A stretch of 32,000 bases of DNA from Candidatus Odinarchaeota archaeon. GTDB lineage: Archaea > Asgardarchaeota > Odinarchaeia > Odinarchaeales > Odinarchaeaceae. The stretch is taken from assembly GCA_016839265.1 (NCBI GenBank), contig JAEOUO010000004.1, positions 223 to 32,222 of the forward strand. Direction: 5' to 3'. Position numbers and translations under genes: made by a program. Position 1 is the stretch's first letter; the number at the start of each line of letters is the position of its first letter. Under the pieces are notes generated by a model that was given only the letters and a program-made list of their open reading frames with translations, did not search any database and was not told the origin of the DNA. Below are positions 2,941 to 27,030 of this stretch, one piece after another.

Positions 2941-3396
2941 ATGAGCCGGGTTAAAAAGACTAAGGTTCTTCTACCTATCACTCTGAAAGTTAACAGAGAA
3001 CTATTACTGAAAGGGTTTGAAATATTAAAAGGTTTAAAAAACCCTGATTTAACAGTTTTCCATGTATTAGAGCTTCCTGTAACTGCTTCTCTAGATATTT
3101 CAGAGCATGATAAAAAAATTAAAGAATTAAAACAGCAGTTAATCCCTACTATTAAATGGATTGAAGAGCAGACATTTAAAATAAATAGTAAAATTGTTGT
3201 AGCCCGTCACATCTCGGAAGCAATAGTGGAGGAAGCTAACAGCGGGGACTATGATCTTGTAATTTTATCGAAAAGAGCACCTCCTAAAGGTTTAAAAAGA
3301 ATATTTCATAGAAGCCACTCAGATTATGTTACCGGTAAAATCAACTGTCCAGCGCTTATTCTCGTAGATAAGAAACCAAAATCTTCAAGACTTTGA
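2941..3396 (+). CDS. Universal stress protein (USP)
   Basis: Motifs KVLLPIT, LTVFHVLE, EAIVEEANSGDYDLVILSKR and SDYVTGKINCPALIL. Confidence 0.85.
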   Translation: MSRVKKTKVLLPITLKVNRELLLKGFEILKGLKNPDLTVFHVLELPVTASLDISEHDKKIKELKQQLIPTIKWIEEQTFKINSKIVVARHISEAIVEEANSGDYDLVILSKRAPPKGLKRIFHRSHSDYVTGKINCPALILVDKKPKSSRL

Positions 3397-4782
3397 TAAA
3401 CTTATGAAAGGCGCAGGTATACGTCCACCGCGTTGAATCAGTTTCGAAGATTTAAATCTGCTAACCGTCATTACAGGCGCAGCTCCGAGTAAACCCCCGT
3501 AGTCCACCCAATCCCCGGGTTTCTTACCGTAGACAGGTATAAGACGGGCGCCGACTGTTTTGCGGTTAATCACTCCAAGCGCGATTATATCACCTATTAG
3601 CGCAGCAATCGTCTCCGGGCTGGTATCCCATGGGAGGGGGATCATATCAAGACCTGTAGAGCATACACCGCTCATAGCTTTTAAATGATCTATTGTTAAA
3701 GCGCCTTCACTAACCGCTTTAGCGATAATATCATCTTCTAACACTGGTATGAAAACTCCGCTCTGTCCTCCTACATATTTTGAAGCCATGCTTCCCCCTT
3801 TCTTCAACGCATCTGTGATAATGGCGATAGCTAAAACACTTCCAGGCGCTCCGAACCTTTCCAATCCTATACTCTCCACTATGCCTCCTACACTGTTACC
3901 ACCTTCAGGTGAAGGGGCTAGTGAAAGATCCACACCACCGAAGTCCACTTTCATCTCTTCTGCTATCCTTCTTCCGATAAGCTCCCCAGCTCTGGTTACT
4001 TTAAAACTAGTTGACTTAATCGCTTCAACAACATCCCCAAGCGAAGCTTTATCCTCTAAATTATTTAAAACCGCGTGAACAACACCAGGTCCGCTTATAC
4101 CAACAGTTAACGAGACATCACTGTCCCCTATACTGTGAAACGCGCCTGGTAGAAACGGTGTTCCCTCAGCCGCGTTAGCCATCACCATAAGCTTCGCGCA
4201 GCCTACACTGTTTTCATTTTTCGTATTATAAGCGATATCTTTAATCACATACCCTATTCGCTTAACCATATCCATGTTTATACCGCTCTCGGTAGAAGCA
4301 ACGTTTATAAACGAGAAAACTCTCTTCGTGGTGGATAACACTGTAGGTAAGCTTTCTATAAGTTTTTCATCCGCTTCAGATGCACCTCGGTGTACAAAAC
4401 ACGAGTAACCGCCGATGTAGTCCACCCCTGCGTCAACTACAGCTTTCTCAAGGGTTTCCGCGATTTTTAAACAGATTTTACTTTTATCAGAGTCGCTTTG
4501 ATTCCTTAAAAGGCTTCCAAGAATTATTGAGATAGGTGTAACCGCGATACGCTTATTAACTATTGGAACCCCGTAAGATCTCTGAACCTCTTTGCAGCTT
4601 TCATCAAATTGTTTAGAATAAGACATTATCTTATAATATATTTTATCACATGTCTCTTCAACGCTTCCCCCGATACAGTCTAGGAGGCTGATACCTAAAG
4701 TAGCTGCTCTAATATTCAGCTTCTGTAATGTAATCATTCTAATAGTTTCAATTATCTCCTCTGTATCTAGTAGCGCAGGCAT
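3385..4782 (-). CDS. DUF711 / UPF0210 (PFL-like) family protein
   Basis: N-terminal EIIETIRMI, then TLGISLLDC, VNKRIAVTPIS, PFLPGAFH, VGISGPGVV and CSTGLDMIPLP. Paired with an ACT protein, as is typical for the family. Confidence 0.9.
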   Translation of the reverse strand: MPALLDTEEIIETIRMITLQKLNIRAATLGISLLDCIGGSVEETCDKIYYKIMSYSKQFDESCKEVQRSYGVPIVNKRIAVTPISIILGSLLRNQSDSDKSKICLKIAETLEKAVVDAGVDYIGGYSCFVHRGASEADEKLIESLPTVLSTTKRVFSFINVASTESGINMDMVKRIGYVIKDIAYNTKNENSVGCAKLMVMANAAEGTPFLPGAFHSIGDSDVSLTVGISGPGVVHAVLNNLEDKASLGDVVEAIKSTSFKVTRAGELIGRRIAEEMKVDFGGVDLSLAPSPEGGNSVGGIVESIGLERFGAPGSVLAIAIITDALKKGGSMASKYVGGQSGVFIPVLEDDIIAKAVSEGALTIDHLKAMSGVCSTGLDMIPLPWDTSPETIAALIGDIIALGVINRKTVGARLIPVYGKKPGDWVDYGGLLGAAPVMTVSRFKSSKLIQRGGRIPAPFISLSKS

Positions 4783-4796
4783 TTATTCTAAGCCCC

Positions 4797-5093
4797 CTAA
4801 ACTCTATGAAGGAATTTAAAAATCTCCTCTTTAAGCGCGATTAATGTGACTCCTGTTTCCTCCTCCTTCTTTTTAAGAATATTTTTAAGCTCATCATAGC
4901 TGATCTTCGCTTCACTCATATCAGCGATCATAATCATAGTGAATACAGGTGTCCCTGATTGAAGAATAGTTGAACGCATATCCTCTATGTTAATATTATT
5001 CTCAGCTAGTATATTCGCCACCATCGCCACTATCCCAGGTCGGTCAACTCCGACAACAGTTATCACAATTTTCTTCTCATCCATTAACCTCAC
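4797..5093 (-). CDS. ACT-domain protein (UPF0237 family)
   Basis: Motifs VITVVGVDRPGIVAMVANILAENNINIED and EEIFKFLHRV. Lies directly upstream of DUF711. The true start may be the second Met (MDEKK). Confidence 0.9.
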   Translation of the reverse strand: MRLMDEKKIVITVVGVDRPGIVAMVANILAENNINIEDMRSTILQSGTPVFTMIMIADMSEAKISYDELKNILKKKEEETGVTLIALKEEIFKFLHRV

Positions 5094-5180: not shown

Positions 5181-6422
5181 ATGTCTTATATTAATCTAAA
5201 CCTTCAAGTGGATCCTGAAAGATACGTTATAGCTGATTACACTCTTGAAAGCGATCTACCTTTAGAGATTGCAGCTGAGAAACTTGCAGCTGAGGAAAGC
5301 ACTGGAACATGGACGGAGATCTCTACAACTAATACTAGAATAGTTGAGGAGCTTGGAGCTAAAGTCTTCTATATTGATAAATCGAAAAATTTTGTTAGAG
5401 TAGCCTACCCGCTTGACGACTTCAGCTGGGATATAGGTGGAATTCCTCAATTTTTAAGCGTAGTAGCTGGTAACTTTTTCGGTTTAGAGCAGTTGAAAAA
5501 CGCTAGACTACTCGATGTACACTTGCCGAATCAGGTTATAAAATTATTTAAGGGGCCGAAATTCGGTTTACACGGTGTTAAAAAACTCATGAACTGTGAG
5601 CATATGCCTTCTATAGGGGGTACAGTTAAACCGAAAATAGGGTTACCAGCTAGAAAATACGGTGAACTAGTGTATCTTTTCGGTTTAGGTGGTTTAACAG
5701 CAGGGAAAGATGATGAAACCCTTGTAAACCAGAAATTCTGCCCGCTTATAGACCGAGTTATAGCAGTCAGAGAAGCGATAGATAAAGTTAAAGATGAAAC
5801 AGGTCAAAGCATGCTTTACTCTGTAAACGTGACTACGAGAACAGATCAAATACTAGAAGTAGCTGATAAAGCTATCAGTCATGGGGCTAACCAGCTTTTA
5901 GTCGACTTGATAGTAGCAGGGTTCAGCGCGGTTCAAACATTAGCTGAAGACCCTAGTATAAATGTTCCCATCCACTGTCATAGAGCTATGCACGCTGCTT
6001 TCACGCGAAATCCTAAACACGGAATATCCATGAAAGTGGTTGGTAAAATATGCCGCCTAGTAGGCGGGGATATCTTACATGTGGGAACATGGGGTGTAGG
6101 TAAAATGCACGGTGAAGCTGATGAAACCCAGCTATACGCGGATGCAATAACACAGCTTATGGGCCACTTGAAACCTATGCTGCCTATGGCTAGCGGTGGA
6201 TTACACCCCGGCTCAGTTGAGCTTCTCGTTAAGAGAGCTGGAATAAATATTCAAATACAAGCAGGCGGCGGGATTGCAGGTCACCCTGATGGTGTACTAG
6301 CCGGAGCTAAAGCTTTACGTCAAGCTGTAGACGCAGTGGTGCAAGGGATCCAGGTTGAAGAATACGCGAAAACACATAGTGAGCTTAAAAAAGCTATAGA
6401 ACACTGGGGTGTAGTTCGCTAA
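5181..6422 (+). CDS. rbcL: RuBisCO large subunit, archaeal form III-type
   Basis: All canonical catalytic positions are present (form I numbering): E60/T65/W66 (AEESTGTW), N123 (VAGNFFG), K175/K177 (TVKPKIG), K201-D-D-E204, H294/R295/H298 (HCHRAMH), H327/K334 (HVGTWGVGKM), SGG and GGG. AMP phosphorylase and R15P isomerase are nearby. Confidence 0.92.
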   Translation: MSYINLNLQVDPERYVIADYTLESDLPLEIAAEKLAAEESTGTWTEISTTNTRIVEELGAKVFYIDKSKNFVRVAYPLDDFSWDIGGIPQFLSVVAGNFFGLEQLKNARLLDVHLPNQVIKLFKGPKFGLHGVKKLMNCEHMPSIGGTVKPKIGLPARKYGELVYLFGLGGLTAGKDDETLVNQKFCPLIDRVIAVREAIDKVKDETGQSMLYSVNVTTRTDQILEVADKAISHGANQLLVDLIVAGFSAVQTLAEDPSINVPIHCHRAMHAAFTRNPKHGISMKVVGKICRLVGGDILHVGTWGVGKMHGEADETQLYADAITQLMGHLKPMLPMASGGLHPGSVELLVKRAGINIQIQAGGGIAGHPDGVLAGAKALRQAVDAVVQGIQVEEYAKTHSELKKAIEHWGVVR

Positions 6423-6452: not shown

Positions 6453-7430
6453 CTAAATTATTTCGTAGTCTTCTATAATCTGGTTTTCAAAACTTTTTCT
6501 AAAACCGGTTTTACTATAGAAAACATCTTTATTCATTACTATAAGAGGGTGATCGAACATGTCACCGCAGAAATCTAAGTCATCAACCGGAGGTTTCACT
6601 AAAATTATCTTTCTATTAAATATTAACTGTTCAATTTTCTCAACCATATAGTTTTCCATTTCTTCGAATCCGCGCAGTAACATGTTTAAAGGTGTATCTA
6701 GAAATAAAGGTCTTAATTTCACAACTGTTCTAGACGCTTTCCGCCTTCTAAGATCATTTTTTTCAACCAATATCTTAATATCTCCTTTACTATCCACAGG
6801 AGGTGCTATGAACGCCATCTCCCCGCTTCCACTATTAAAGTCTTCGCGTAAAACAAGCTTATCATACTCTCCTAAAATATTATCTAATTCTTTAAGCGAT
6901 TTCAGAAAATCCTCTCTACTGCAAGTTTTCCTGTGAACCGAAAAAAACTCACCGCCGGTTTTAATAAGAGCTTGAACATCTCCGTTTAACACCATATAAC
7001 TCGCTTCGTTTAGATTTAAGGAGTTAACCTTATTTACAGTGAAGCCTGCGTTTAAAATACTTTCTAAATTTATTTCTCTATTAAACTTTAAAACCCAACT
7101 ATCCCGTTTAAAATATGATTCCCTTAGAATATTTAACGGAGCGTAAACTTTACACTTCTCTTTTAAACCGATCTCTCTTAAAGCGAATACTCTATGAGTT
7201 CCATCCGCTATAACATAATCCGCTCCTAGCTCTGTGACAAGTATCGGATGAAGGAACCCTTCTGAACTGAAACTTTCAATCAACCTGTCTATAACAGTTT
7301 TATCTGAAACAGTCTTTTCATGTTCAACAATATGGTTAATCTCCGATAAACCGAATTCAACTATAAAATCACCGTTTAAATTCGAGAATTTAACTTTCCA
7401 AGAGTGTTCACCGAAATTAAATGTTATCAT
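6453..7430 (-). CDS. ParB/Sulfiredoxin-fold protein resembling ADP-dependent serine kinase SerK / SbnI
   Basis: Motifs VEHE, HPILV, YVIADGTHR, SW and APPVDSKGDIKILVEKNDLRRRKASRTVV occur in the same order as in SerK-family proteins (recalled consensus PHE, KPML, YLIVDGHHR, TW, APTKEEVMEL..G..FSPKTTRHV). Confidence 0.65.
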   Translation of the reverse strand: MITFNFGEHSWKVKFSNLNGDFIVEFGLSEINHIVEHEKTVSDKTVIDRLIESFSSEGFLHPILVTELGADYVIADGTHRVFALREIGLKEKCKVYAPLNILRESYFKRDSWVLKFNREINLESILNAGFTVNKVNSLNLNEASYMVLNGDVQALIKTGGEFFSVHRKTCSREDFLKSLKELDNILGEYDKLVLREDFNSGSGEMAFIAPPVDSKGDIKILVEKNDLRRRKASRTVVKLRPLFLDTPLNMLLRGFEEMENYMVEKIEQLIFNRKIILVKPPVDDLDFCGDMFDHPLIVMNKDVFYSKTGFRKSFENQIIEDYEII

Positions 7431-7650
7431 AACCTCACCTAGAATATCTTCTATAAATCTTAAATTTTACATATAAAACATTAATTGTCTACTAGATTCA
7501 GCCTATTTCATAGAGGATTACAACTTAAACATAGTTAAATTTTATTCTTTAAAAATAAGAATTTTAAGAGATATAGTAAATTTCTGATTTAATAAATTGT
7601 TTAATATGTTTTTATATAACGCCTGTTTAATATTTTTCACAGTGATATTT

Positions 7651-8574
7651 ATGGAGATTGTTGAAAAAACAGCCGCTGACATTAAAAACTTGAGGATTCA
7701 AGGAGCCACTAATATCGCGGTTAAAGCTTTAACAGCTATAACTGACCAGATTAAGAGTTTAAACCCTAAAACAATTCAAGAAGCGCTTTCGCAACTTCAT
7801 AAAATGAAGGAAACACTGTTTCAAAGCAGGCCTACTGAGCCTACTATGAGAACCGGAGTTAAATATATACTCTATAATTTACAGCGAAACCTCCCTGACC
7901 CTGTTAACATAAGTGACGTGATATCTTCTTTAGCCTCCCAGTATATTACACTTCTTAAAGAAGCTAAAGCTAGAATTCAGGTGATCGGCGCTAATAGAAT
8001 AGTAGACGGAATGACTATAATGACACACTGTCACAGTTCTATTGTGAGCGGGATTATTATTAAAGCATTTCAGGATGGTAAAAAATTTGATGTAGTGTGT
8101 ACGGAGACAAGACCTCTATATCAAGGGCATATAACTGCTAGAGAGCTAAGTGAGAAAGGGGTTAAAACCACGCTTATCGTTGATTCTGCGATGAGATGGG
8201 CTGTTCAACAGAAAGAAGTGGATTTAATTCTCGTCGGCGCTGACGCGATTACATCTGAAGGTGTTGTTTTAAATAAGATAGGGACAAGATTACTCGCCTT
8301 AGCCGCTGAAGAATATAATGTCCCCTTTTACGTAGCCACTCCATCTTTTAAATTCTCACCTGAAACAGTTATAGGTAACCTTGAGAAAATAGAGTTAAGG
8401 GATCCAGGAGAGGTTTGGGATTCGCCTCCTGAAAATCTTAGAATAGATAATCCTGCTTTCGAAACCGTGGCTAGAAAATATATTCACGGAATAATCACAG
8501 AGCTGGGGATACTGCCTCCAGGATACCTTTACGGCGCGATTGTTGAGAAGTATCCTTTTATATTCTCGGATTAA
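7651..8574 (+). CDS. Ribose-1,5-bisphosphate isomerase (eIF-2B alpha/beta/delta family)
   Basis: Motifs RIQGA, SRPT, MTHCHSS (catalytic Cys), ETRP, GADAIT (catalytic Asp) and NKIGT. Sits immediately upstream of AMP phosphorylase. I chose ATG 7651 (AGTGAT SD-like upstream) over the ORF-track start at 7597. Confidence 0.9.
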   Translation: MEIVEKTAADIKNLRIQGATNIAVKALTAITDQIKSLNPKTIQEALSQLHKMKETLFQSRPTEPTMRTGVKYILYNLQRNLPDPVNISDVISSLASQYITLLKEAKARIQVIGANRIVDGMTIMTHCHSSIVSGIIIKAFQDGKKFDVVCTETRPLYQGHITARELSEKGVKTTLIVDSAMRWAVQQKEVDLILVGADAITSEGVVLNKIGTRLLALAAEEYNVPFYVATPSFKFSPETVIGNLEKIELRDPGEVWDSPPENLRIDNPAFETVARKYIHGIITELGILPPGYLYGAIVEKYPFIFSD

Positions 8575-8596: not shown

Positions 8597-10117
8597 ATGG
8601 TTGAGTTAACGGTTAAACTAGTTGATGTAATATGTAACTATAATCAGGTTATATTAAACGATAAAGACGCTAAGAATATGAAGGTTACCAGTCGCGATCG
8701 CGTTCAAGTTAAATCAATTAATAAATCTTTCACAGCGGTTTTACTGACAACTAAAAGTCTTTTACGTGAGGGAGAGATCGGGTTAAACGAGACTCTTATG
8801 AGTAATCTTCAGGCTAAAGAAGGTGGAACGGTTGAAGTTACCCCAGCGAAAACACCTCTCTCCCTGTCATTTATTAAGAAAAAATTAAGCGGAGATTCTT
8901 TAAGCCATGCTGAAATGTCTCAGATCGTAGAGGATATTGTTTCTATGACTTTAACACCTGTTGAGATGGCCGCTTTCATATTAGCTCAACACTACCAGGA
9001 TCTGTCTATGGCTGAAGTTGAATATTTGACTAGAGCTATGGCGGAGACCGGTGTCACAATCGACTTCGAGGAGCCTGTCTACGATAAGCACTCCATTGGC
9101 GGTGTTCCGGGTAACAAAGTCTCTCTTCTAATTGTTCCTATAATCGCTTCTATGGGGCTTTTAATACCTAAAACGAGCAGTAGAGCTATAACCTCTCCTT
9201 CAGGAACCGCGGATACATTTGAAGTTTTAGCTCCCGTTAACTTTTCAGTTGAAGAGATTAAATCACTTGTTAAAAAAACACGTGGCTGCCTTGTATGGGG
9301 GGGAACCCTTAACATTGCACCTGCAGATGATATTTTAATCGAAACCGTGGAGTATCCTTTGAGCATAGATCCGACAAGTCAGATGTTAGCTTCAATAATG
9401 TCTAAGAAATTAGCTATAGGAGTGGATTCTCTTGTATTAGATGTCCCTGTAGGTTTTAACGCTAAAGTTAAAACTAAAGAGGAGGCGGTTACGCTTTCAA
9501 GAAAATTTGTTGAATTAGGTGAAAGATTAAAGATAAGGGTTGAAGTCGGTTTAACATACGGTGATCAACCTGTAGGTCACGCTGTCGGGCCGGCTTTAGA
9601 GGCGAAGGAGGCTCTTGAAGCTTTAATGGGTGTAGGTGCTTCCACCTCACTTGTAGAGAAATCTACAGCTTTAGCGGGTATATTATTAGAAATGGCTGGG
9701 CTTGCAAGCAGGGGAAGCGGCCAACAGCTCGCTTTAGAGTGTGTCAACAACGGTAAAGCTCTTAAAAAAATGATGGAGATTATTGAAAACCAGGGCGGGG
9801 ACCCTAATATTAAACTAGAAGATATTCCTTTAGGTGAGGAGTCTGAGAATATACTTGCTCCATTCTCCGGTTATATTGTCGAAGTGGATAATAAAGCTGT
9901 TAACGCAATCGCTAGAGCCGCAGGCGCTCCAGAACATAAAGGTGCAGGAGTATACTTATATAAGAAGAGAGGCGGCTATGTGAAGAAGGGGGATCCGATT
10001 CTGAAAATCTACGCCGAGAAATCTTCTAAGCTCAGTGAAGCTATATCTGTAGCGAATAAATCTAACCCTGTAACTATTGAGGGGATGCTTCTTAAACATG
10101 TATCAGCGTTATACTAG
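8597..10117 (+). CDS. deoA: AMP phosphorylase (archaeal NMP phosphorylase)
   Basis: Has the N-terminal extra beta domain of AMP phosphorylases, plus DKHSIGGVPGNK, KTSSRAITSPSGTAD, IMSKKLA and GAPEHKGAG. 506 aa. Confidence 0.95.
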   Translation: MVELTVKLVDVICNYNQVILNDKDAKNMKVTSRDRVQVKSINKSFTAVLLTTKSLLREGEIGLNETLMSNLQAKEGGTVEVTPAKTPLSLSFIKKKLSGDSLSHAEMSQIVEDIVSMTLTPVEMAAFILAQHYQDLSMAEVEYLTRAMAETGVTIDFEEPVYDKHSIGGVPGNKVSLLIVPIIASMGLLIPKTSSRAITSPSGTADTFEVLAPVNFSVEEIKSLVKKTRGCLVWGGTLNIAPADDILIETVEYPLSIDPTSQMLASIMSKKLAIGVDSLVLDVPVGFNAKVKTKEEAVTLSRKFVELGERLKIRVEVGLTYGDQPVGHAVGPALEAKEALEALMGVGASTSLVEKSTALAGILLEMAGLASRGSGQQLALECVNNGKALKKMMEIIENQGGDPNIKLEDIPLGEESENILAPFSGYIVEVDNKAVNAIARAAGAPEHKGAGVYLYKKRGGYVKKGDPILKIYAEKSSKLSEAISVANKSNPVTIEGMLLKHVSALY

Positions 10118-11831: not shown

Positions 11832-13082
11832 TTGAAATTAATGGTTTACGAGCATGCTTCAGGCGGAGGCTACTGTGATAGAAAGCTAACACCATCCCTT
11901 TTCAGTGAAGGATATGCGATGCTTAACGCGTCTGTTCAGGATTTTCAACGGATTGAAAGCAAAGTTTACACTACACTTGACTATCGAATCGCGAATTTCA
12001 CTCCGCCTTTAAACGTTGAGGTGGTTACAATTCTACGGCCACCCCAGAAAATATTAAATGTATTCGATAAAGTCTGTAAGGAAATAGATCAAATAATGAT
12101 TATCGCACCGGAGAACGCTGACACGCTTTATAATCTAACTAAAATAGCTGAGAGAAACCAGCTTATCGTTTTAGGCTCCACTTCTGAAGCTGTGAAGGTT
12201 TTATCTAATAAATGGAATGTTAAAAAAATAGCTGAAAACCTCGGCTTAAATGTTCCCCACCTTGAAAAAATATCTTTCAACGCTTCTCTTAAAGAAGTTA
12301 AAGAAATATTAGATAACATCGGTTACCCTGCTGTTTTAAGAAATCTTGACTCAGTCGGCGGTGAAGGTATAATCTCAGTCACTTCGAAAAGTGATTTAAA
12401 CACGGCGATTACAACACTTAAATCAACTACAACCCACCATGAGTTTATAGCGCATAAATATATTAAAGGGATTCCAGCTAGTGTCAGCCTTTTATCTAAC
12501 GGAGTGACTGCGATTCCTATAAGCTTAAACGCTCAAGCTGTTAACTTCGATCAGCAGACCGGTTTATTAGATTATCTCGGCGGCTACACTCCGCTTAAAT
12601 ATAAAGTATCTGTGCAAGTTAAGAAAACAGCTTTAAAATTAGTTGAGTACATGTCTGGTGTAAGAGGATACATTGGAGTCGACTTTGTAATAGATGAATC
12701 AGATCAACCGTTCATTCTTGAAGTTAACCCGCGTTTAACCACAAGCTACATAGCTATTCGACGTGTAACGGATATCAACTTAATGGAGGCTATACGTAAA
12801 GCTGTCGTGGATGGTTCACTGCCTGAAAAAATAAATTTGGAAGGTTCAGCTTTCTTCTCTAAAGTTAGAATTAAAGTAACCGGCGGGTTAACAGTAACTA
12901 AAATGCATCAACTAGCTCAAATCAGCGGAGTTATCACCCCCCCCTTCCCAACAGGTTTAAACTACTCTGAAGCTATGATCGTAGCTGAAGGAGGTACTTT
13001 AAGAGAAGCTCAGAATGCTTTCCAATATATGAAAAAAAACTTAGAGTCACTGGGTGAAGTAGCATCTGAGGGTATTACATGA
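11832..13082 (+). CDS. mfnD: ATP-grasp ligase, tyramine--L-glutamate ligase (methanofuran biosynthesis) type
   Basis: Motifs MVYEHASGGG, SEGYAML, IIAPE, GIPASVS, GYIGVDFV and LEVNPRLTTSY. Translationally coupled (ATGA overlap) to mfnF. Confidence 0.8.
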   Translation: MKLMVYEHASGGGYCDRKLTPSLFSEGYAMLNASVQDFQRIESKVYTTLDYRIANFTPPLNVEVVTILRPPQKILNVFDKVCKEIDQIMIIAPENADTLYNLTKIAERNQLIVLGSTSEAVKVLSNKWNVKKIAENLGLNVPHLEKISFNASLKEVKEILDNIGYPAVLRNLDSVGGEGIISVTSKSDLNTAITTLKSTTTHHEFIAHKYIKGIPASVSLLSNGVTAIPISLNAQAVNFDQQTGLLDYLGGYTPLKYKVSVQVKKTALKLVEYMSGVRGYIGVDFVIDESDQPFILEVNPRLTTSYIAIRRVTDINLMEAIRKAVVDGSLPEKINLEGSAFFSKVRIKVTGGLTVTKMHQLAQISGVITPPFPTGLNYSEAMIVAEGGTLREAQNAFQYMKKNLESLGEVASEGIT

Positions 13083-14125
13083 CTGTTATCGCTGGCGTTG
13101 ACGTGGGTGGAGCTAACACTAAAATCTCTATCATAAACTCTGATTATAAAACGCAAAGCGTAAGCTTTTATTTCCCTTTCTGGAAACGTAAGCTCACTGA
13201 TTATCCTAAGATTTTCTTAAGTTATTTAAAAAAACTGTCACCTATAAATAGAATAGGTTTTTTCACTATTACGATGACCGCTGAACTCTGCGATATATTT
13301 AAAACTAAACGTGAAGGGGTTTTAAAAATAATAGAGCTGTTCTCATCTATTCTACCGGTTGACAAACTCTTCTTCTACACTGTTGACGGTAACTATGTTA
13401 ACGTTTCTAAAGCTGTGCAGAACCCTGTAAAATTAGCCGCCTCTAACTGGGTGGCTACAGGCGCCTTCTTTTCAGAGCTTCTCCCAGACAGTCTTATCAT
13501 AGATATGGGCAGTACGACAACTGATTTAATAATAGTGAAAGATAGAGTAGTATACAGTAAAGGTTCTACTGATTTGAAAAGGCTTTTAAACGGTGAACTC
13601 TACTATACTGGGCTTCTTCGAACACCTTTATGCGCTTTAACCAATCGACTCTCCTTCAATAATAAGGAATACAGTTTAGCCGCTGAATTATTCGCGATCA
13701 CAGCTGATGTTCATTTAATTTTAGGCAACATCAATCAAAACCAGTATACATGTGACACACCGGATAACGGTGAAAAAACAATTGAAGCCTCCTATCGGAG
13801 GCTCAGCCGCATGTTATGTTCAGATGTAGAGGAACTTTCAAAACAGGATTTATTTAAAATCGCGAAGGTTTTTGAAAGAATTCAGTTTAACACGGTTAAG
13901 AGAGGCGTAAATAAATTATTAAACACTCATCTTCAGCTTCAAAATAAACCTGTTATCTTGACAGGGATCGGCCGCAAATGGCTTTATAAAATGTTTAAAG
14001 CCAGCCGGTTAAATTTAAGCTTTAAACTATCAGATGAGTTAATTAAAAAAGATGTCAGCGACTTAACACCCGCTTACGCTATCGCATACCTGTTTAATAA
14101 AAAACTGAGGGATATTGTTGAGTGA
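13079..14125 (+). CDS. mfnF: Hydantoinase/oxoprolinase-family H4MPT-linked C1 protein, MfnF type
   Basis: Motifs GVDVGGANTK, TMTAELCDIF, ASNW, IDMGSTTTD, GELYYTGLLRTP and AELFAITADVH. Confidence 0.85.
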   Translation: MTVIAGVDVGGANTKISIINSDYKTQSVSFYFPFWKRKLTDYPKIFLSYLKKLSPINRIGFFTITMTAELCDIFKTKREGVLKIIELFSSILPVDKLFFYTVDGNYVNVSKAVQNPVKLAASNWVATGAFFSELLPDSLIIDMGSTTTDLIIVKDRVVYSKGSTDLKRLLNGELYYTGLLRTPLCALTNRLSFNNKEYSLAAELFAITADVHLILGNINQNQYTCDTPDNGEKTIEASYRRLSRMLCSDVEELSKQDLFKIAKVFERIQFNTVKRGVNKLLNTHLQLQNKPVILTGIGRKWLYKMFKASRLNLSFKLSDELIKKDVSDLTPAYAIAYLFNKKLRDIVE

Positions 14126-14792
14126 GTTAGACGCGGTTATTAAAATCGGCGGCGAGCTTATATTAGATGAGGAAACATGCCGCTCACTGTTAAAAGAGCT
14201 TTATAAAAATATTCTTACAGGTAGAAGACTGCTAGTTATCAGCGGTGGCGGTGTGTTAAGCGATCATATACGTGAACTTTATCGTAAACGTGTTATATCA
14301 GATGAAGCTGCTCACTGGATGGCTGTTCTCTCCATGGATCAATCAGCTCACATACTAGCTGAAAAAGATTTAAATATTAAACTCGTCCGCAATCCTATTG
14401 AAGCTGAACAAGCAGCTGAGTCAAGGCATCTCCCGGTTATGTTAGTTTATAATTATCTTAGATTAAACGATAACCTGCCTCATAATTGGAGTGTAACCTC
14501 AGATTCTATTGCAGCCTATATTGCTTTCAAAACTAAGACTCGATTTCTAATACTGGTTAAAAACGTTGACGGGCTCTACCCGACCCCTGAAATCAGGGAG
14601 GATAATCTTATACCTGCTATTAAAGCATCCTTTCTTAACCCGGATAAACATAAAATAGTAGACAGTTATCTACGTGAAATCCTCTGTTTAAAACCGGATT
14701 ATAAATGCTGGCTTATCAATGCTTACCACCCTGAGCGGTTAACAGAATTACTGAAAACCGGTGTAACCTTTGGAACTGAGATAATTATTTAA
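14115..14792 (+). CDS. mfnE: Amino-acid-kinase-family protein, 5-(aminomethyl)-3-furanmethanol phosphate kinase type
   Basis: Motifs VIKIGG, GGG..SD..R, AHWMAVLSMDQ, LPHNWSVTSDSIA and K.VDG. Overlaps mfnF. Confidence 0.85.
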   Translation: MLSELDAVIKIGGELILDEETCRSLLKELYKNILTGRRLLVISGGGVLSDHIRELYRKRVISDEAAHWMAVLSMDQSAHILAEKDLNIKLVRNPIEAEQAAESRHLPVMLVYNYLRLNDNLPHNWSVTSDSIAAYIAFKTKTRFLILVKNVDGLYPTPEIREDNLIPAIKASFLNPDKHKIVDSYLREILCLKPDYKCWLINAYHPERLTELLKTGVTFGTEIII

Positions 14793-14832
14793 TATAGTTT
14801 AAATATTTAATTATATCACGCGGTGAGTAAAT

Positions 14833-15342
14833 TTGAATAGACCTAGTAAGGATGAATACTATTTGAATATCGCTAAAGCTGTCTCAGCCCGCTCCACATG
14901 TCTTAGAAGAAAATTCGGAGCTGTAATAGTTAAAGATGATGTTATTGTAAGCACCGGATATAATGGTCCGGCTAGAGGAGTGGTTAACTGTCAGGAAGTC
15001 GGCTGTCTTAAAAACCAGCTTAACATACCCGCCTATACAGGTTACGATTATTGTATAGCAGTGCACGCGGAGGAGAACTCTATTATAAACGCAGCGCGTC
15101 ACGGCGCTGAAGTGAAAGGCGCTACATTATATTTATACGGGGAGACTGTTGAGGATAGTAAAATCACAGAGGCTGATCCGTGTAAAAGATGCAGGCGAGC
15201 TATAATCAATGCGGGTATTATTCGGGTGGTGACTAGGAAAAGCGAAACTGAAATAAAAGAGTTTAATGTTTCAGACTGGGTTAAAGAGGATACAGAATAC
15301 TATTTAAACGAGTTTAAAAAAGCACTGAAAAAGAATTGTTAA
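14833..15342 (+). CDS. dCMP deaminase (ComEB/DCTD family)
   Basis: Motifs RSTCLRRKFGAVIV, STGYNG, HAEEN and PCKRC (Zn ligands). Confidence 0.9.
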   Translation: MNRPSKDEYYLNIAKAVSARSTCLRRKFGAVIVKDDVIVSTGYNGPARGVVNCQEVGCLKNQLNIPAYTGYDYCIAVHAEENSIINAARHGAEVKGATLYLYGETVEDSKITEADPCKRCRRAIINAGIIRVVTRKSETEIKEFNVSDWVKEDTEYYLNEFKKALKKNC

Positions 15343-16061
15343 TCTAGCATTCTCTTCAAAACTCTTATTCTATCCGCGCTCACCTTACCGTTAACTCTAT
15401 CACCGTTCTCACAGACCAAGCTGCGTACACCTAGAATATCGCAGCCTATTTTTTTAACAGTACGCAGATGCGCTAATCTCACTCCACCTGCAAGCGCTGT
15501 TTGAAAACCTTTACTTTTACACTTCTCAGTGAATTCTTCAAGCTCTTCAACACTCATAAAGTCGAAGGTGCTTTTCCCATTTTTAATAAAAGTATCTATC
15601 ATCAATACGCTTACATCTAAGTCTTCAACTAAATCCGGTAAACGCATCGGATTCACGGATCCTATTCTACTCCAATCAGAGTAACCGGCTGTAACTATTC
15701 TACCAGGAAACCCGAATTCTTTTTTAACTTTACACAACATTTTAAGAAACTCTCTAATCGCCTGCTCTGAAACAGGTTTATATAAGCCGATTTTCGCGTA
15801 ATCCACACCAAGACTTAAAACACCTAGCAACGCCTGAGTGATTAATCCAGGTTTATCTAAACTATCACACACAGCCGCGCTGACCTCCATACTAGGAGGC
15901 GTTAGCTTCTTCACTTCTCTAATAATCCATGGATATTGACCGCCTAAAGAACCCTCCAACGGGTTTTTAACATCTATAATATCAACACCGCTTTCAATAA
16001 CTGTTTCAGCTTCTTCAACGTTTTTAGGGCTTACTAAAAGCTTCGTGAAGCACCCCTCCAT
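15339..16061 (-). CDS. mfnB: (5-formylfuran-3-yl)methyl phosphate synthase (4-HFC-P synthase, DUF556)
   Basis: Motifs KLLVSP..VEEA, DIIDVKNPLEGSLG, YAKIGL, MIDTFIKNGKS, ALAGG and DILGVRS. Confidence 0.92.
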   Translation of the reverse strand: MEGCFTKLLVSPKNVEEAETVIESGVDIIDVKNPLEGSLGGQYPWIIREVKKLTPPSMEVSAAVCDSLDKPGLITQALLGVLSLGVDYAKIGLYKPVSEQAIREFLKMLCKVKKEFGFPGRIVTAGYSDWSRIGSVNPMRLPDLVEDLDVSVLMIDTFIKNGKSTFDFMSVEELEEFTEKCKSKGFQTALAGGVRLAHLRTVKKIGCDILGVRSLVCENGDRVNGKVSADRIRVLKRMLD

Positions 16062-23616: not shown

Positions 23617-26600
23617 ATGACATTTACGCTGACAGAACCTACGGCGGCTTCTGAAATTAAGGAGCTTATTAATCAGATTATTCAGGAGGAGAATTTACCT
23701 TTAGACTCAGCAAAAGTGGAGTTAATGGATTCTAGAGGGCATAGACCCGACATAATTATATTCGATCGATTAAATAAACCAATATGCGCTATAGAAGTAA
23801 AACGTCCTTTTATATCCCCGTATCAAATTGAATTATTTGAACAAGCATTACAATACGCTAACACTGAAGGAATCCGTTTCTTCGCAACTTTTAATTTTAA
23901 CACTCTCGTATTATGGGAGACATTTAAAGAAGGGGTTCCAATTAGGGATAGACGATATAAAGAATATTTTACCGCTGATATAATTGATTTACACGATCTT
24001 CTACAGCTCTCAGTCAAGAATAATATCAAAAAGGGTCTTAGAGAATTTTTACAAGACTTAGTAAAACTTCAAGTGGCTAAAAAGACCGAGGAGATTCTGC
24101 CGACTCTTGAATTTGATAAAATCTTCATTGACTATCTTCATTCCCTTTTGAACTCAATGAAAATCCCTTTAGTTACTGAACTCAATAAAAAACTTGATAT
24201 TGATCCTGTTTTTAAAAATAAACTCTTAGAATGGTTAACTACACAAGGATGGGATTCTACATATATAGATGTTAAGGGCGTAATAGATGTTGTAGCCCGC
24301 CAGTATATTTTACTTCTCTTAAATAAGATAATGTTTTATAAAATTTTAAGCTCACGTTATAAAGAGATAAGACCACCTAATTACAAGCTTTTAAGTCTCC
24401 CAGATGAGTTACCTACATTGAAAATACCTGAAGATATCACTGATGGTGGTAATTTACAGCGCATTTTAAAGAGTTTTTTTGAAAAAGTTCTGCTCATAGA
24501 CTATGAAACAATCTACGAATCCGATTTCCTGGATGAGATTAAACTACCAGACCCCCTTGTGTCACCTATAAGAATACTTGTAAATGAATTTGATAAATAT
24601 GATTTCACCAAGATTGACTATGAGGTGCTCGGGAATATTTTCGAACGGCTAATACCTGAAAAAGATCGTCATCTACTAGGCCAATACTTCACAAGATCGG
24701 ATGTGGTTGACCTAATTGTTGCCAGCTGCGTTAAAAATAAAAATGATGTTATTCTCGATCCTGCTTGCGGGGCAGGGACATTTTTAATCCGCGCCTATTC
24801 CCGCTTAAAATATCTTGGTGCTGAAGGTCCTCACAGTAGTTTTCTAAATAAATTATGGGGTATAGATATAGCTAAATTCCCAGCCCACTTAACCACAATT
24901 AATCTTGCTATAAAAGATTTATCGGAAAGAAATAATTATCCAAGAGTGATCTGCTCAGATTTCTTCAAAGTTTCACCAGGGACCAAGATTTACTCACCTT
25001 ATTTTATAACTGAAGGATTAGATAAAAAAAATTCCCGGCATGAACTCCCCTCGTTTAATGTAGTTATGACCAATCCCCCTTATACACGGCAGGAGGAGAT
25101 GGAGGAGAAACTTGAAGAAGGATATAAGAATACCGTAATAGAATTAATAGCAAAAGAAACTGGGATGACACTAGGTAAAAGAAGCAGTATTTACGCTTAC
25201 TTTTTCCTGCATGGAAGCGTTTTTCTAGGCGATGGAGGTAGGCTTGGTTTAATCACATCAAACTCTTGGCTTGATGTAGACTACGGTAAATATTTACAAG
25301 AATTTTTCTTAAAGAATTTTAAAATAAAATATATAATCGACTCTAAAGTAGAAAGATTTTTCGAAGACGCAGATATTAACACAGCGATAACAATCCTTGA
25401 GAAATGCAGAAATCAAGAGGAGCGCGATAATAATATTGTGAAATTTGTAGAGTTGAGAAAGAAGTTGCCTGAAGTTCTCTCATATTTTGGTGACCACGAC
25501 ACTGAATACGAGAAATGGACGGATAAAGAAAGATGGGCGGCTGTAGATAAATTTTTAGCATACCTCGATAAAATAAGCGGCATCACTATAAATGAAGAAA
25601 TAGGAGTAAGAGTCTACCCTAAAAATCAGAGAGAATTATATGAAGAAGGCCTTGAAGAGGGAAAATATGCCGGCTCAAAATGGGGTAAATATATTAAAGC
25701 CCCAGATATCTTCTTTAAAATATTAGAAAAAGGAAAAGACTTATTTATTCCTCTAAAAGATATTGCGGATATTACAGGAGGAATTATAACAGGTAAAAAT
25801 AATTTTTTCTATCTTAGAGAGAGTCAGATAAGAAACTTTGGAATAGAAGAAAAATTCTTGATTCCAGTGATTAAAACTCCTAAGGAATTAGGAAAAATTT
25901 ATTTTACTAAAAAAGATCTGAAATACAAGTTGTTCTTTGTTACGGAGGAAAGAAATAATATTAAAGGAACTAATGCATTAAAATATATTGAATATGGTGA
26001 AAAACAAGGATTCAACACTAACCCAACATTCAAAGCGCGAAAACATTGGTACCAAATACCAGAATTGAAACAAGCTGAACTATTATGGATTGATTTAAGA
26101 GGGGAAAAACATATTTGCCATTTGAACGTCGATAATGTACCATTTGAACATAATTTCTATGGTATAAATCCAAAAAAAATAAATAAAGAACTCTTATGCG
26201 CCTATCTAAACAGCACTCTTTCTTGGTTATTTATAGAAGTACTTGGTAGAAGCAGTTTAGGAGAGGGTGCAATAAGGTTGGTTGGACAGGATCTTAAAAA
26301 TTTTCCTACAATATTGCTTAAAGAGGGGGTGCCCGACTCTTTAAAGATTCAAAAGATTTTTGATAAACTAAAACACAGGGAGATTGAAAGCGTGTTTAAA
26401 GAAGTCGGCGCGAATAAACCCGAAGAAGTTTCCTTAGAAAAAGTTAACCAAGATGTAAGGGAACTTGATAAGGTAATAATTGGTGAAATTTTAGGTTTAA
26501 CTGATGAAGAACAATTAGAGGTTTACAGGGCGGTTGTTGACCTTGTTAAGTCGAGGATAGAAAAAGCCAAGAGCGTTGAGAGAAAAAGCAATAAAGAAGA

Positions 26601-27030
26601 GTTTTCCACGAACATAGACCAGATAAAAGACATAGTTTTGCATGGAATAGACAAGACAATAGTAGATGATGTGAAAAAGTTTATTCCAGAAAATTATGAT
26701 AATAGAGTGATTGAAATTAAAGCTTCGAAGAGTATTGAGGTTAAAGTTGATTTGCACGGTAAATTTAAGTTGGTAAGTGGTGAAGAAGAAGTTGAATTCT
26801 CTACTTTAGAGGAGGCTGAATATGCTAGATATATGTTGATGAGAGGTAAAGAGAGGATGGTAATTCCAAGAGATACGCAAATTTTACGTGATGTTCTTGT
26901 TAAGTTTAAGAAATTGGATAAGGCGATTAAAAATAGGATCAATGAATATTTGAAACAATTAGTGAGTAAGGAGAAAAAACGGAAATTAATAGAAGCTGAA
27001 TTATATAGGAAGATCTGGGCTGCTTTATAG
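23617..27030 (+). CDS. Type IIG fused restriction-modification enzyme (REase + N6-adenine MTase + TRD, Eco57I-like)
   Basis: N-terminal nuclease RPDIII...AIEVKRP...QALQYA, then GQYFT, motif I ILDPACGAGTFL, GIDI and motif IV NPPY. The C-terminal target-recognition region includes LCAYLNSTLSWLFIEVLGR. Confidence 0.88.
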   Translation: MTFTLTEPTAASEIKELINQIIQEENLPLDSAKVELMDSRGHRPDIIIFDRLNKPICAIEVKRPFISPYQIELFEQALQYANTEGIRFFATFNFNTLVLWETFKEGVPIRDRRYKEYFTADIIDLHDLLQLSVKNNIKKGLREFLQDLVKLQVAKKTEEILPTLEFDKIFIDYLHSLLNSMKIPLVTELNKKLDIDPVFKNKLLEWLTTQGWDSTYIDVKGVIDVVARQYILLLLNKIMFYKILSSRYKEIRPPNYKLLSLPDELPTLKIPEDITDGGNLQRILKSFFEKVLLIDYETIYESDFLDEIKLPDPLVSPIRILVNEFDKYDFTKIDYEVLGNIFERLIPEKDRHLLGQYFTRSDVVDLIVASCVKNKNDVILDPACGAGTFLIRAYSRLKYLGAEGPHSSFLNKLWGIDIAKFPAHLTTINLAIKDLSERNNYPRVICSDFFKVSPGTKIYSPYFITEGLDKKNSRHELPSFNVVMTNPPYTRQEEMEEKLEEGYKNTVIELIAKETGMTLGKRSSIYAYFFLHGSVFLGDGGRLGLITSNSWLDVDYGKYLQEFFLKNFKIKYIIDSKVERFFEDADINTAITILEKCRNQEERDNNIVKFVELRKKLPEVLSYFGDHDTEYEKWTDKERWAAVDKFLAYLDKISGITINEEIGVRVYPKNQRELYEEGLEEGKYAGSKWGKYIKAPDIFFKILEKGKDLFIPLKDIADITGGIITGKNNFFYLRESQIRNFGIEEKFLIPVIKTPKELGKIYFTKKDLKYKLFFVTEERNNIKGTNALKYIEYGEKQGFNTNPTFKARKHWYQIPELKQAELLWIDLRGEKHICHLNVDNVPFEHNFYGINPKKINKELLCAYLNSTLSWLFIEVLGRSSLGEGAIRLVGQDLKNFPTILLKEGVPDSLKIQKIFDKLKHREIESVFKEVGANKPEEVSLEKVNQDVRELDKVIIGEILGLTDEEQLEVYRAVVDLVKSRIEKAKSVERKSNKEEFSTNIDQIKDIVLHGIDKTIVDDVKKFIPENYDNRVIEIKASKSIEVKVDLHGKFKLVSGEEEVEFSTLEEAEYARYMLMRGKERMVIPRDTQILRDVLVKFKKLDKAIKNRINEYLKQLVSKEKKRKLIEAELYRKIWAAL

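Follow-up and report, generated by a model that had tools for sequence, protein, structure and literature searches.

The stretch analysed here is 32,000 nucleotides of contig JAEOUO010000004.1 from an Odinarchaeial genome (1.35 Mb, 6 contigs, 97% complete), hereafter the window, and the gene that concerns us lies on its reverse strand at 6453..7430 (stop codon 6453-6455), where an open reading frame encodes a 325-residue protein, P0001. Profile, fold and model comparisons make it very probable that P0001 is a small-molecule kinase of the SerK/SbnI fold. By sequence it is not an orthologue of SerK, being instead a very divergent relative of the free-serine kinases, and it belongs to a subfamily of the serine-kinase fold that is sharply set apart and confined to Asgard archaea, and that we name the RR family. 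In this clade the free-serine-kinase fold has yielded a subfamily with charged changes beside its active-site motifs, and in two lineages the RR gene stands head-to-head with the gene for a ribose-1,5-bisphosphate (R15P) isomerase. On balance the acceptor is slightly more apt to be something other than plain serine. That it is a pentose phosphate feeding the isomerase or the carboxylase/oxygenase of ribulose-1,5-bisphosphate (RuBisCO) is a tentative proposal, on which the odds are against us, and the same holds for the whole chain of claims leading to it.

Fold and family of P0001

P0001 is 73% identical to protein P0003 of Ca. Odinarchaeum yellowstonii. The NCBIfam SerK model aligned with P0001 over 230 of its 244 positions (E 6.4e-10), although a score of 38.6 bits against the cut-off of 380 leaves the protein outside the SerK equivalog NF053625, and Pfam SerK_C (PF18231) gave no match even at E up to 10. 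The SerK structures in the Protein Data Bank (PDB) and 1VK1 aligned end to end with the P0001 sequence, and a profile of 17 family members compared with the PDB found SbnI at E 9e-12 and 1VK1 at 2.6e-11, with SerK/SbnI matches in the range E 1e-11 to 1e-9. An AlphaFold2 (AF2) model of P0001 (predicted local distance difference test, pLDDT, 92; predicted template modelling score, pTM, 0.87) led to the same relatives. SerK and SbnI filled the first nine places of a Foldseek comparison with the PDB (244-266 columns, E 3e-13 to 3.5e-11), and VIA-align placed SbnI at Z 18.4 (238 residues aligned) and SerK at Z 15.2 (211 residues aligned), the next match being sulfiredoxin (Srx) at Z 6.8. ParB, Noc, KorB and sulfiredoxin aligned in Foldseek with only ~83 residues of the N-domain. 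P0001 therefore carries in one chain the N-terminal ParB/Srx-like domain and the SerK-type second domain by which the SerK/SbnI superfamily is recognised, and no PfkB-family match was found for it in Pfam or NCBIfam, which speaks against a ribokinase/PfkB fold. The initial annotation of this DNA had called the protein SerK-like from its letters, and this assignment is borne out by the sequence models and by the structural comparison (VIA-align Z 15-18), in which the best matches are SerK and SbnI, second domain included, and not ParB or sulfiredoxin; the likeness to SerK goes well past anything that chance would give. Since a full-length match is found only to two-domain serine kinases, the fold offers no ground for rejecting the idea of a kinase.

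The RR family and its signature residues

A search of 1.8 billion representative proteins gave 15 clusters at E up to 1e-10, to which a profile search of 5.8 billion proteins added a few more members. The RR clade now stands at 19 sequences or clusters, and its named sources are Odinarchaeia and metagenome-assembled genomes labelled Ranarchaeia and Hodarchaeota. Among the assemblies with RR-family members are GCA_054387495.1, GCA_054391155.1 and GCA_054390595.1. In a tree of 80 superfamily members a long branch (stem 1.34; Shimodaira-Hasegawa-like approximate likelihood ratio test, SH-aLRT, 100) separates the clade from the rest. Scans of genomes and metagenomes with a back-translated ADGTHR pattern turned up only two extra Odin loci and three short contigs, and a search for fused forms among proteins of 656-2000 residues gave no match to the family profile, which is weak evidence; shorter forms were not searched. 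Outside the clade, the nearest relatives are found in Asgard archaea and Chloroflexota among the ordinary SerK-like proteins, at E 1e-9 to 1e-4 and with an hhalign probability of 97-99%.

The RR clade and ~65 other SerK-like proteins have a core in common, made up of H37, E38, P62, D76, G77, H79, R80, W112, P211, K231, S/T233, R234 and R240, and the catalytic core residues do not vary among 18 clade members and occur in nearly all of the 65 others. The motifs on which the SerK reading had been built, namely HE, PIL, DGTHR, SW and AP...K.SR in SerK order, are all present in P0001. The pair H37-E38 (7317..7322, reverse strand) is the counterpart of SerK H29-E30 in alignments to 5x0b and 5x0j; it is invariant in the clade and present in 63/65 other superfamily members, and E30, which corresponds to E38, is the one replaced in the SerK entries E30A/E30Q. 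P62-I-L64 and A209-P-P211 are likewise found. D76-G-T-H-R80 (7191..7205, reverse strand), which is invariant in the clade and aligns with DGHHR of SerK and DGVHR of SbnI, is the Box II or P-motif (GxxR) loop, to which a phosphate-binding role is assigned in the ParB/Srx fold (PMC12704722). The change from DGHHR to DGTHR had been taken as a sign of a new substrate, but this argument does not hold, because the superfamily has no fixed residue at the x of DGxHR (M, T, N, H, A, L, V or Q may stand there) and the proven kinase SbnI has V at this place.

More telling are positions beside these motifs. In the segment R109-D-S-W112 (7095..7106, reverse strand), column statistics give R at position 109 in 18/18 clade members against V, L or I in 60/65 others, next to a Trp (W112) that 62/65 other SerK-like proteins have; going by the motif roles described in PMC12704722, R109, ~30 residues past the GxxR loop, would fall at the place of the phosphate-binding Box III of ParB. 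A second cluster is found in the loop of the second domain, R228-R-R-K231-A-S233-R234-T235 (6726..6749, reverse strand), which aligns with Y-S-P-K-T-T-R-H of SerK and with VTRF of SbnI. Here K231, S/T233 and R234 are near-universal in the superfamily, whereas the clade has R228 and R229, immediately before the K-x-S-R loop, in place of F/L/Y and P/A, and T235 in place of H. In all, eleven residues are clade-specific (W11, A75, T78, R109, R172, L176, D213, R228, R229, S233 and T235). Every clade member has at least 9 of the 11 and every non-member at most 3, and P0027, which the tree places inside the clade, is intermediate with 7/11. SerK-like proteins outside the clade are hydrophobic at 109, 172, 213 and 228, with P or A at 229 and H at 235, and both the SerK of Thermococcus kodakarensis (TkSerK) and SbnI follow this ordinary pattern (V/I at 109, Y/V at 228 and S/P at 229). 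The earlier suggestion of a re-purposed kinase thus draws real backing from a clean clade signature (R109, R172, D213, R228, R229 and H235T), even though the DGTHR change from which it had been argued is not diagnostic.

Both ends of the protein also differ from SerK. Residues 1-22 (7365..7430, reverse strand) form in the model a clade-specific N-terminal beta-hairpin with strands 2-6 and 9-15 by DSSP; it carries W11, which is found in 17/18 clade members at a column that is a gap in 61/65 other SerK-like proteins. At the other end, SerK alignments stop at P0001 residue 249-252, and residues 253-325 (6456..6674, reverse strand), past the end of TkSerK, hold a conserved LDFCGDxFDH block. This C-terminal extension, which had been put at roughly 80 residues, is real but comes to ~73, and it is less particular than it seemed: part of it aligns with SbnI, the match to which covers model residues 1-287, and ordinary SerK-like proteins of 280-300 residues also have a C-terminal region in which an aromatic-acidic pair is conserved. 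The alignments indicate that the terminal parts particular to the RR clade are the N-terminal hairpin with W11 and the last 30-40 residues.

Genomic context and pairing with the R15P isomerase gene

As had been noted, the P0001 gene lies between the genes for the RuBisCO large chain and the R15P isomerase and is divergent from the latter. The type III-like RuBisCO large-chain gene (5181..6422, forward strand; PF00016 and PF02788) is convergent with it, its stop being 30 bp away, and its best model is TIGR03326 at 399 bits against a cut-off of 497. The isomerase-like gene of the IF-2B family (7597..8574, forward strand; PF01008 at E 1e-71) has TIGR00511, for R15P isomerase, as its best model (270 bits, under the cut-off of 314), and it is followed by an AMP phosphorylase gene (8597..10117, forward strand) with 688 bits to TIGR03327, over the cut-off of 535. 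For the isomerase, ATG 7651 is a more probable start than TTG 7597, since an ATGGAG start is conserved across aligned relatives, and the isomerase product would then have 307 residues as in Ca. O. yellowstonii. With this start, the intergenic region that the two divergent genes share (7431..7650) would be ~220 bp long; it is A+T-rich, and beyond TATA-like boxes and the isomerase start, which is conserved, the alignment of relatives brings nothing out. A sigma-70 and terminator scan of this region is not meaningful for an archaeal host. DNA datasets with the locus are oil-field and hydrocarbon metagenomes, and no RNA dataset is listed for it.

The divergent kinase-isomerase pair is kept at five Odinarchaeum-type loci (the window, L001, L002, L008 and L009), which we count as one observation because the whole region is syntenic in the genus. 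An independent context is provided by locus L006, where a kinase homologue 36% identical to P0001 and an isomerase 56% identical to that of the window stand head-to-head 133 bp apart. The genes around them are different ones, for ABC transporters and an Arf-like GTPase, and within 7 kb no gene for RuBisCO or AMP phosphorylase was found. In the tree L006 groups with the lineage of genome G298, sister to the Odinarchaeum clade, so the pairing extends across the Odin-level clade as a whole and is either ancestral and long retained or arose twice. The initial annotation had looked to a conserved linkage with the AMP pathway, and this is found in part: it is seen in the Odinarchaeum genus and, with the isomerase, at L006, but not in G298, in the Ranarchaeia-labelled genomes or in a distant subclade, and two genomes of the order have the pathway without the gene.

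Proposed activity

In the reading that we favour, P0001 would be a monomer-sized kinase for small molecules that is competent in catalysis and whose acceptor pocket has been remodelled. By homology, the N-domain would bind the nucleotide donor (ATP, ADP or CTP) and hold the donor's phosphates at the D76-G-T-H-R80 loop, the second domain would close over the acceptor with its K231-x-S233-R234 loop, and E38 would deprotonate the acceptor hydroxyl for in-line phosphoryl transfer. At the positions flanking the pocket, three to four arginines (R109, R228, R229 and perhaps R172) appear to have been brought in together with H235T, and if the clade arginines face the acceptor site, as we infer, this gain and H235T would suit an acceptor with more negative charge than serine, presumably a sugar phosphate. 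The acceptor could then be ribose-5-phosphate (R5P) or ribose-1-phosphate (R1P), giving R15P, or ribulose-5-phosphate (Ru5P), giving ribulose-1,5-bisphosphate (RuBP), and the enzyme would offer the pentose-bisphosphate/RuBisCO route a facultative point of entry. Among sugar phosphates a pentose phosphate is favoured by the long-kept divergent pairing with the R15P isomerase, which is the one signal from gene context, and the hypothesis as a whole draws on the arginines beside the motifs, the lack of a serA/serC link, the isomerase pairing and the operon precedent in haloarchaea. In its most specific form, in which the RR family is a SerK-fold pentose-phosphate kinase that makes R15P from R5P or R1P, or RuBP from Ru5P as a non-homologous stand-in for phosphoribulokinase (PRK), of which no homologue was found in this 97%-complete genome, the proposal is doubtful, with perhaps one chance in its favour for every three against. 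Serine is about equally likely as the acceptor, given the homology prior and the need of the genome for phosphoserine.

How carbon enters the archaeal RuBisCO route other than through AMP and a ribokinase-type R1P kinase is an open point, and to our knowledge no enzyme of this route has been tested from Asgard archaea. Were P0001 a SerK-fold pentose-phosphate kinase, Odinarchaeia would have a nucleotide-independent feed of their type III RuBisCO, and with an acceptor of this kind the ParB/Srx fold would gain a new activity and the RuBisCO pathway a new entry. Such an entry point is plausible on thin comparative evidence, and the RR gene would be at most an accessory one.

Several observations weigh against a pentose-phosphate acceptor. 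Those SerK/SbnI superfamily members that are characterised in the cited literature are L-serine kinases, and P0001 is the only SerK-like gene in its host genome. By its gene content this host needs O-phosphoserine, since users of it are encoded in the form of SepRS (521 bits, cut-off 381) and CysK (457 bits, cut-off 351). The genome further has two PfkB kinases located away from the P0001 locus, and one of these, a ribokinase-like protein, is a candidate R1P kinase in its own right, with 125 and 115 bits to the two R1P-kinase models. Its gene lies in a row with those of a HAD-type hydrolase and a Lyase_1 protein (G000:C2:123405-126880, L016), and because this HAD/RbsK pairing is like that in the non-carboxylating pentose bisphosphate operon of haloarchaea, this PfkB protein is the likelier R1P kinase. 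Gene context is adverse as well. In G298/L005 the RR orthologue lies between ThyX and HflX, and in G298 the isomerase-AMP phosphorylase pair is on a different contig; at L007 and L078 (labelled Ranarchaeia) the RR gene lies between a methyltransferase and an MrfA-like helicase. No pathway gene was found in the contexts L007, L078, L014, L010, L011, L013, L070, L072 and L073, of which L010, L011, L013, L070, L072 and L073 belong to the distant subclade, and altogether most lineages, at least four besides the two that have it, lack the kinase-isomerase pairing. All three pathway genes, for the isomerase, AMP phosphorylase and RuBisCO, occur in 7/7 genomes of the order, including G299 (91% complete) and G300 (82% complete), in which an RR orthologue was not found, so that the pathway is not dependent on the RR gene. 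Lastly, the arginines R109, R172, R228 and R229, with D213, could form salt bridges to the clade-specific N- and C-terminal additions instead of serving an acceptor. As for other routes in the same genome, one PNP/UDP-type phosphorylase is present, and an ADP_PFK_GK-type kinase was not found.

Alternative explanations

The explanation closest to what is established for the superfamily, and one to which we give rather less than an even chance, is that P0001 is a fast-evolving L-serine kinase whose O-phosphoserine would go to SepRS/SepCysS and a CysK-type sulfhydrylase or, through phosphoserine aminotransferase and the SerA-like dehydrogenase, to 3-phosphoglycerate (3-PGA) as in Thermococcus; its adjacency to RuBisCO would then be accidental, or reflect the shared 3-PGA node, or the recovery of serine from 2-phosphoglycolate. 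Consistent with this, the characterised relatives SerK and SbnI act on free serine, and the further remote relative DUF1015 has been proposed to be a serine kinase (PMC13759103). P0001 keeps the catalytic core and the K-x-S/T-R loop, and it is the sole SerK-like gene of a genome in which SepRS and CysK are accompanied by a class V aminotransferase, a glyoxylate reductase and a SerA-like dehydrogenase of short length that scores 345 bits to PGDH; among the 400 Asgard genomes searched, none had two separate SerK-like genes, the three double matches falling on one open frame. SerK has, moreover, already been placed in a Rubisco-linked salvage scheme (PMC11032457). Against serine, the score of P0001 lies far under the SerK cut-off and SerK_C is not matched, the clade-specific changes are all at residues conserved in proven and putative serine kinases, and a SerA/SerC route to phosphoserine appears, from the gene content, to be present already. 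Neighbours of the serA, serC or cysK kind were not found in any of the ~12 RR-family contexts examined, whereas ordinary SerK-like proteins show fusion or adjacency to SerA; these links of the relatives favour serine kinase as the default of the superfamily, and the RR clade is without them. If the acceptor is serine, serine kinases would extend to Asgard archaea and the phosphoserine supply of SepRS would be tied to the 3-PGA node. Less likely again is a kinase for an unrelated small molecule such as a hydroxy acid, an amino alcohol or a nucleoside, with the isomerase pairing as inherited gene order. In its favour, most family contexts lack a pathway gene and G299 and G300 have the pathway without the gene, and a nucleotide or one-carbon link rather than one to RuBisCO is hinted at by ThyX, from which the G298 orthologue is divergent and with which another SerK-like group shares an operon in one Asgard genus. 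However, ThyX was not found in the genome of the window, and at L006 the kinase-isomerase pair survives though all other neighbours differ and AMP phosphorylase has moved away, which for one gene among ~1,500 is unlikely to be chance. A replacement of thymidylate kinase, an idea prompted by the ThyX neighbours, was dropped because Tmk is present and ThyX absent in the genome.

Two further explanations give catalysis a lesser place. That P0001 is an SbnI-like nucleotide- or metabolite-sensing regulator of the isomerase-AMP phosphorylase operon, with catalysis secondary or lost, is improbable. A divergent position beside a metabolic operon is typical of regulators, ParB-fold proteins are nucleotide switches, and the best structural match, SbnI, is named in PDB entry 6nr6 as a bifunctional transcriptional regulator and O-phospho-L-serine synthase; yet P0001 has no helix-turn-helix (HTH) or other DNA-binding domain, with ParB and Noc aligning over ~83 residues only, its invariance is concentrated on catalytic residues, many of the gene contexts have no such operon, and it is acidic (isoelectric point, pI, 5.5) in a family that ranges from pI 5 to 9.5 with no consistent basic character. 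Far less credible is a sulfiredoxin, or a protein of the ParB kind that acts in partition or as a nuclease. The sole Pfam match of P0001 is a sub-threshold one to ParB_N (E 0.01), TIGR00180 matches at E 9e-5, and proteins of this type are publicly annotated as 'ParB N-terminal domain-containing protein'. The N-domain alone accounts for these likenesses, at Z 6.8 or lower, while P0001 carries the second domain of SerK and SbnI, and the canonical features of ParB are missing from it (no HTH_ParB match in Pfam, no HTH and no C-terminal dimerisation domain). Nor is it like sulfiredoxin, as its loop G-T-H-R holds T78 and no Cys and the chain runs to 325 residues with a second domain. This calls for caution in annotating such genes as 'ParB'.

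Ordinary SerK-like relatives and other genes

Ordinary SerK-like proteins of Asgard archaea, of 246-residue and 287-residue types, reach ~1e-18 to TkSerK and keep DGHHR or DGMHR along with KTTRH. A fold search of the ESM Atlas found a 617-residue Chloroflexota protein in which a SerA-type 2-hydroxyacid dehydrogenase is fused to a SerK-like domain, and in an Asgard context (L036:23-2313) a SerA-like gene is directly upstream of a gene for a 265-residue SerK-like protein. In Desulfurococcales serK adjoins a homologue of 3-phosphoglycerate dehydrogenase, and association of serK with serA, serC or cysK has been described (PMC5120207). A different arrangement is seen in one Asgard genus (g21; L038:627-2844, L040, L047 and L035), where genes for a CbiQ-type transporter component, a 246-residue SerK-like protein and ThyX stand in an operon-like array; this SerK-like protein has DGHHR and KTTRH and matches TkSerK at E 6e-18. 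Together with the RR orthologue of G298 these arrays make the association of SerK-like genes with ThyX a recurrent one. In three Asgard families, genes for SerK-like proteins of 265-290 residues are followed by one for a conserved protein of 315-337 residues with no Pfam match (L024:2459-3466, L029:2329-3273, L030:515-1480 and L036:2321-3334). We considered whether this ~330-residue neighbour is a SerK-like paralogue and rejected the idea, as it is unrelated to the kinase family. G298 also carries two RuBisCO large-chain genes ~4 kb apart (G298:C13:22555-28261; 266 and 183 bits).

Elsewhere in the window, a DUF711 (UPF0210) gene and a small ACT-domain gene (3385-5093) lie upstream of RuBisCO and divergent from it, a pair that is kept at every Odinarchaeum locus examined. 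Methanofuran-type biosynthesis genes, here in an Asgard genome, occupy 11832-16061 and comprise an MfnD-like ATP-grasp gene (11832-13082), a gene for an MfnF-like or tetrahydromethanopterin (H4MPT)-linked C1 protein (13079-14125) and, on the reverse strand, the gene of the 4-(hydroxymethyl)-2-furancarboxaldehyde-phosphate (4-HFC-P) synthase MfnB (15339-16061); among them are an amino-acid-kinase-family gene (14115-14792) and a dCMP deaminase gene (14833-15342). An Eco57I/MmeI-type restriction-modification enzyme of 1137 residues is encoded at 23617-27030, where G+C is low (0.30-0.34) and the GC skew changes strongly.

Comparison with known systems

The closest functional reference is SerK, the ADP-dependent free L-serine kinase of T. 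kodakarensis (TK0378; PDB 5X0B, 5X0E and 5X0J, with 1VK1 from P. furiosus). P0001 resembles it in the two-domain ParB/Srx fold, the H-E pair, the D-G-x-H-R loop, the Trp and the K-x-S/T-R loop at ~20-24% identity, and goes beyond it with the N-terminal hairpin and the ~73 C-terminal residues. Where SerK has V, Y-S and H, P0001 has R109, R228-R229 and T235, respectively, and unlike serK the RR family has no SerA/SerC neighbourhood. The ordinary SerK-like proteins, whether of 246 residues with DGHHR and KTTRH or of 280-300 residues with DGMHR and KTTRH, are closer to TkSerK than the RR family is; they keep KTTRH and the hydrophobic positions that the RR family has lost, and the 280-residue type has an RR-like C-terminal region. 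SbnI, which phosphorylates serine with ATP and regulates the synthesis of staphyloferrin B (PDB 5UJD, 5UJE and 6NR6), is the best structural match and the one whose N-domain the family profile found at E 9e-12. It has the H-E pair, DGVHR, the Trp and T-R, but it is a bacterial protein from a siderophore operon with ~17-19% identity to P0001, and it lacks the clade arginines, with I at 109, V-P at 228-229 and F at 235. As for the donor, an archaeal SerK-like protein has been reported to bind CTP (PMC12704722).

The known R1P kinases TK2029 (ADP-dependent) and Pcal_0041 and Halxa_1682 (both ATP-dependent) have the PfkB/ribokinase fold and are unrelated to P0001, with which they would have in common only the proposed role and the precedent of a kinase-isomerase gene order. 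The initial annotation had held that neither a serine-kinase link to RuBisCO nor one through R15P was described, and this needs qualifying on both counts: SerK of T. kodakarensis has been drawn into a Rubisco-linked scheme for 2-phosphoglycolate salvage (PMC11032457), and haloarchaea encode R15P isomerase in one operon with an R1P kinase, although there the kinase is of the PfkB fold (PMC9700705).

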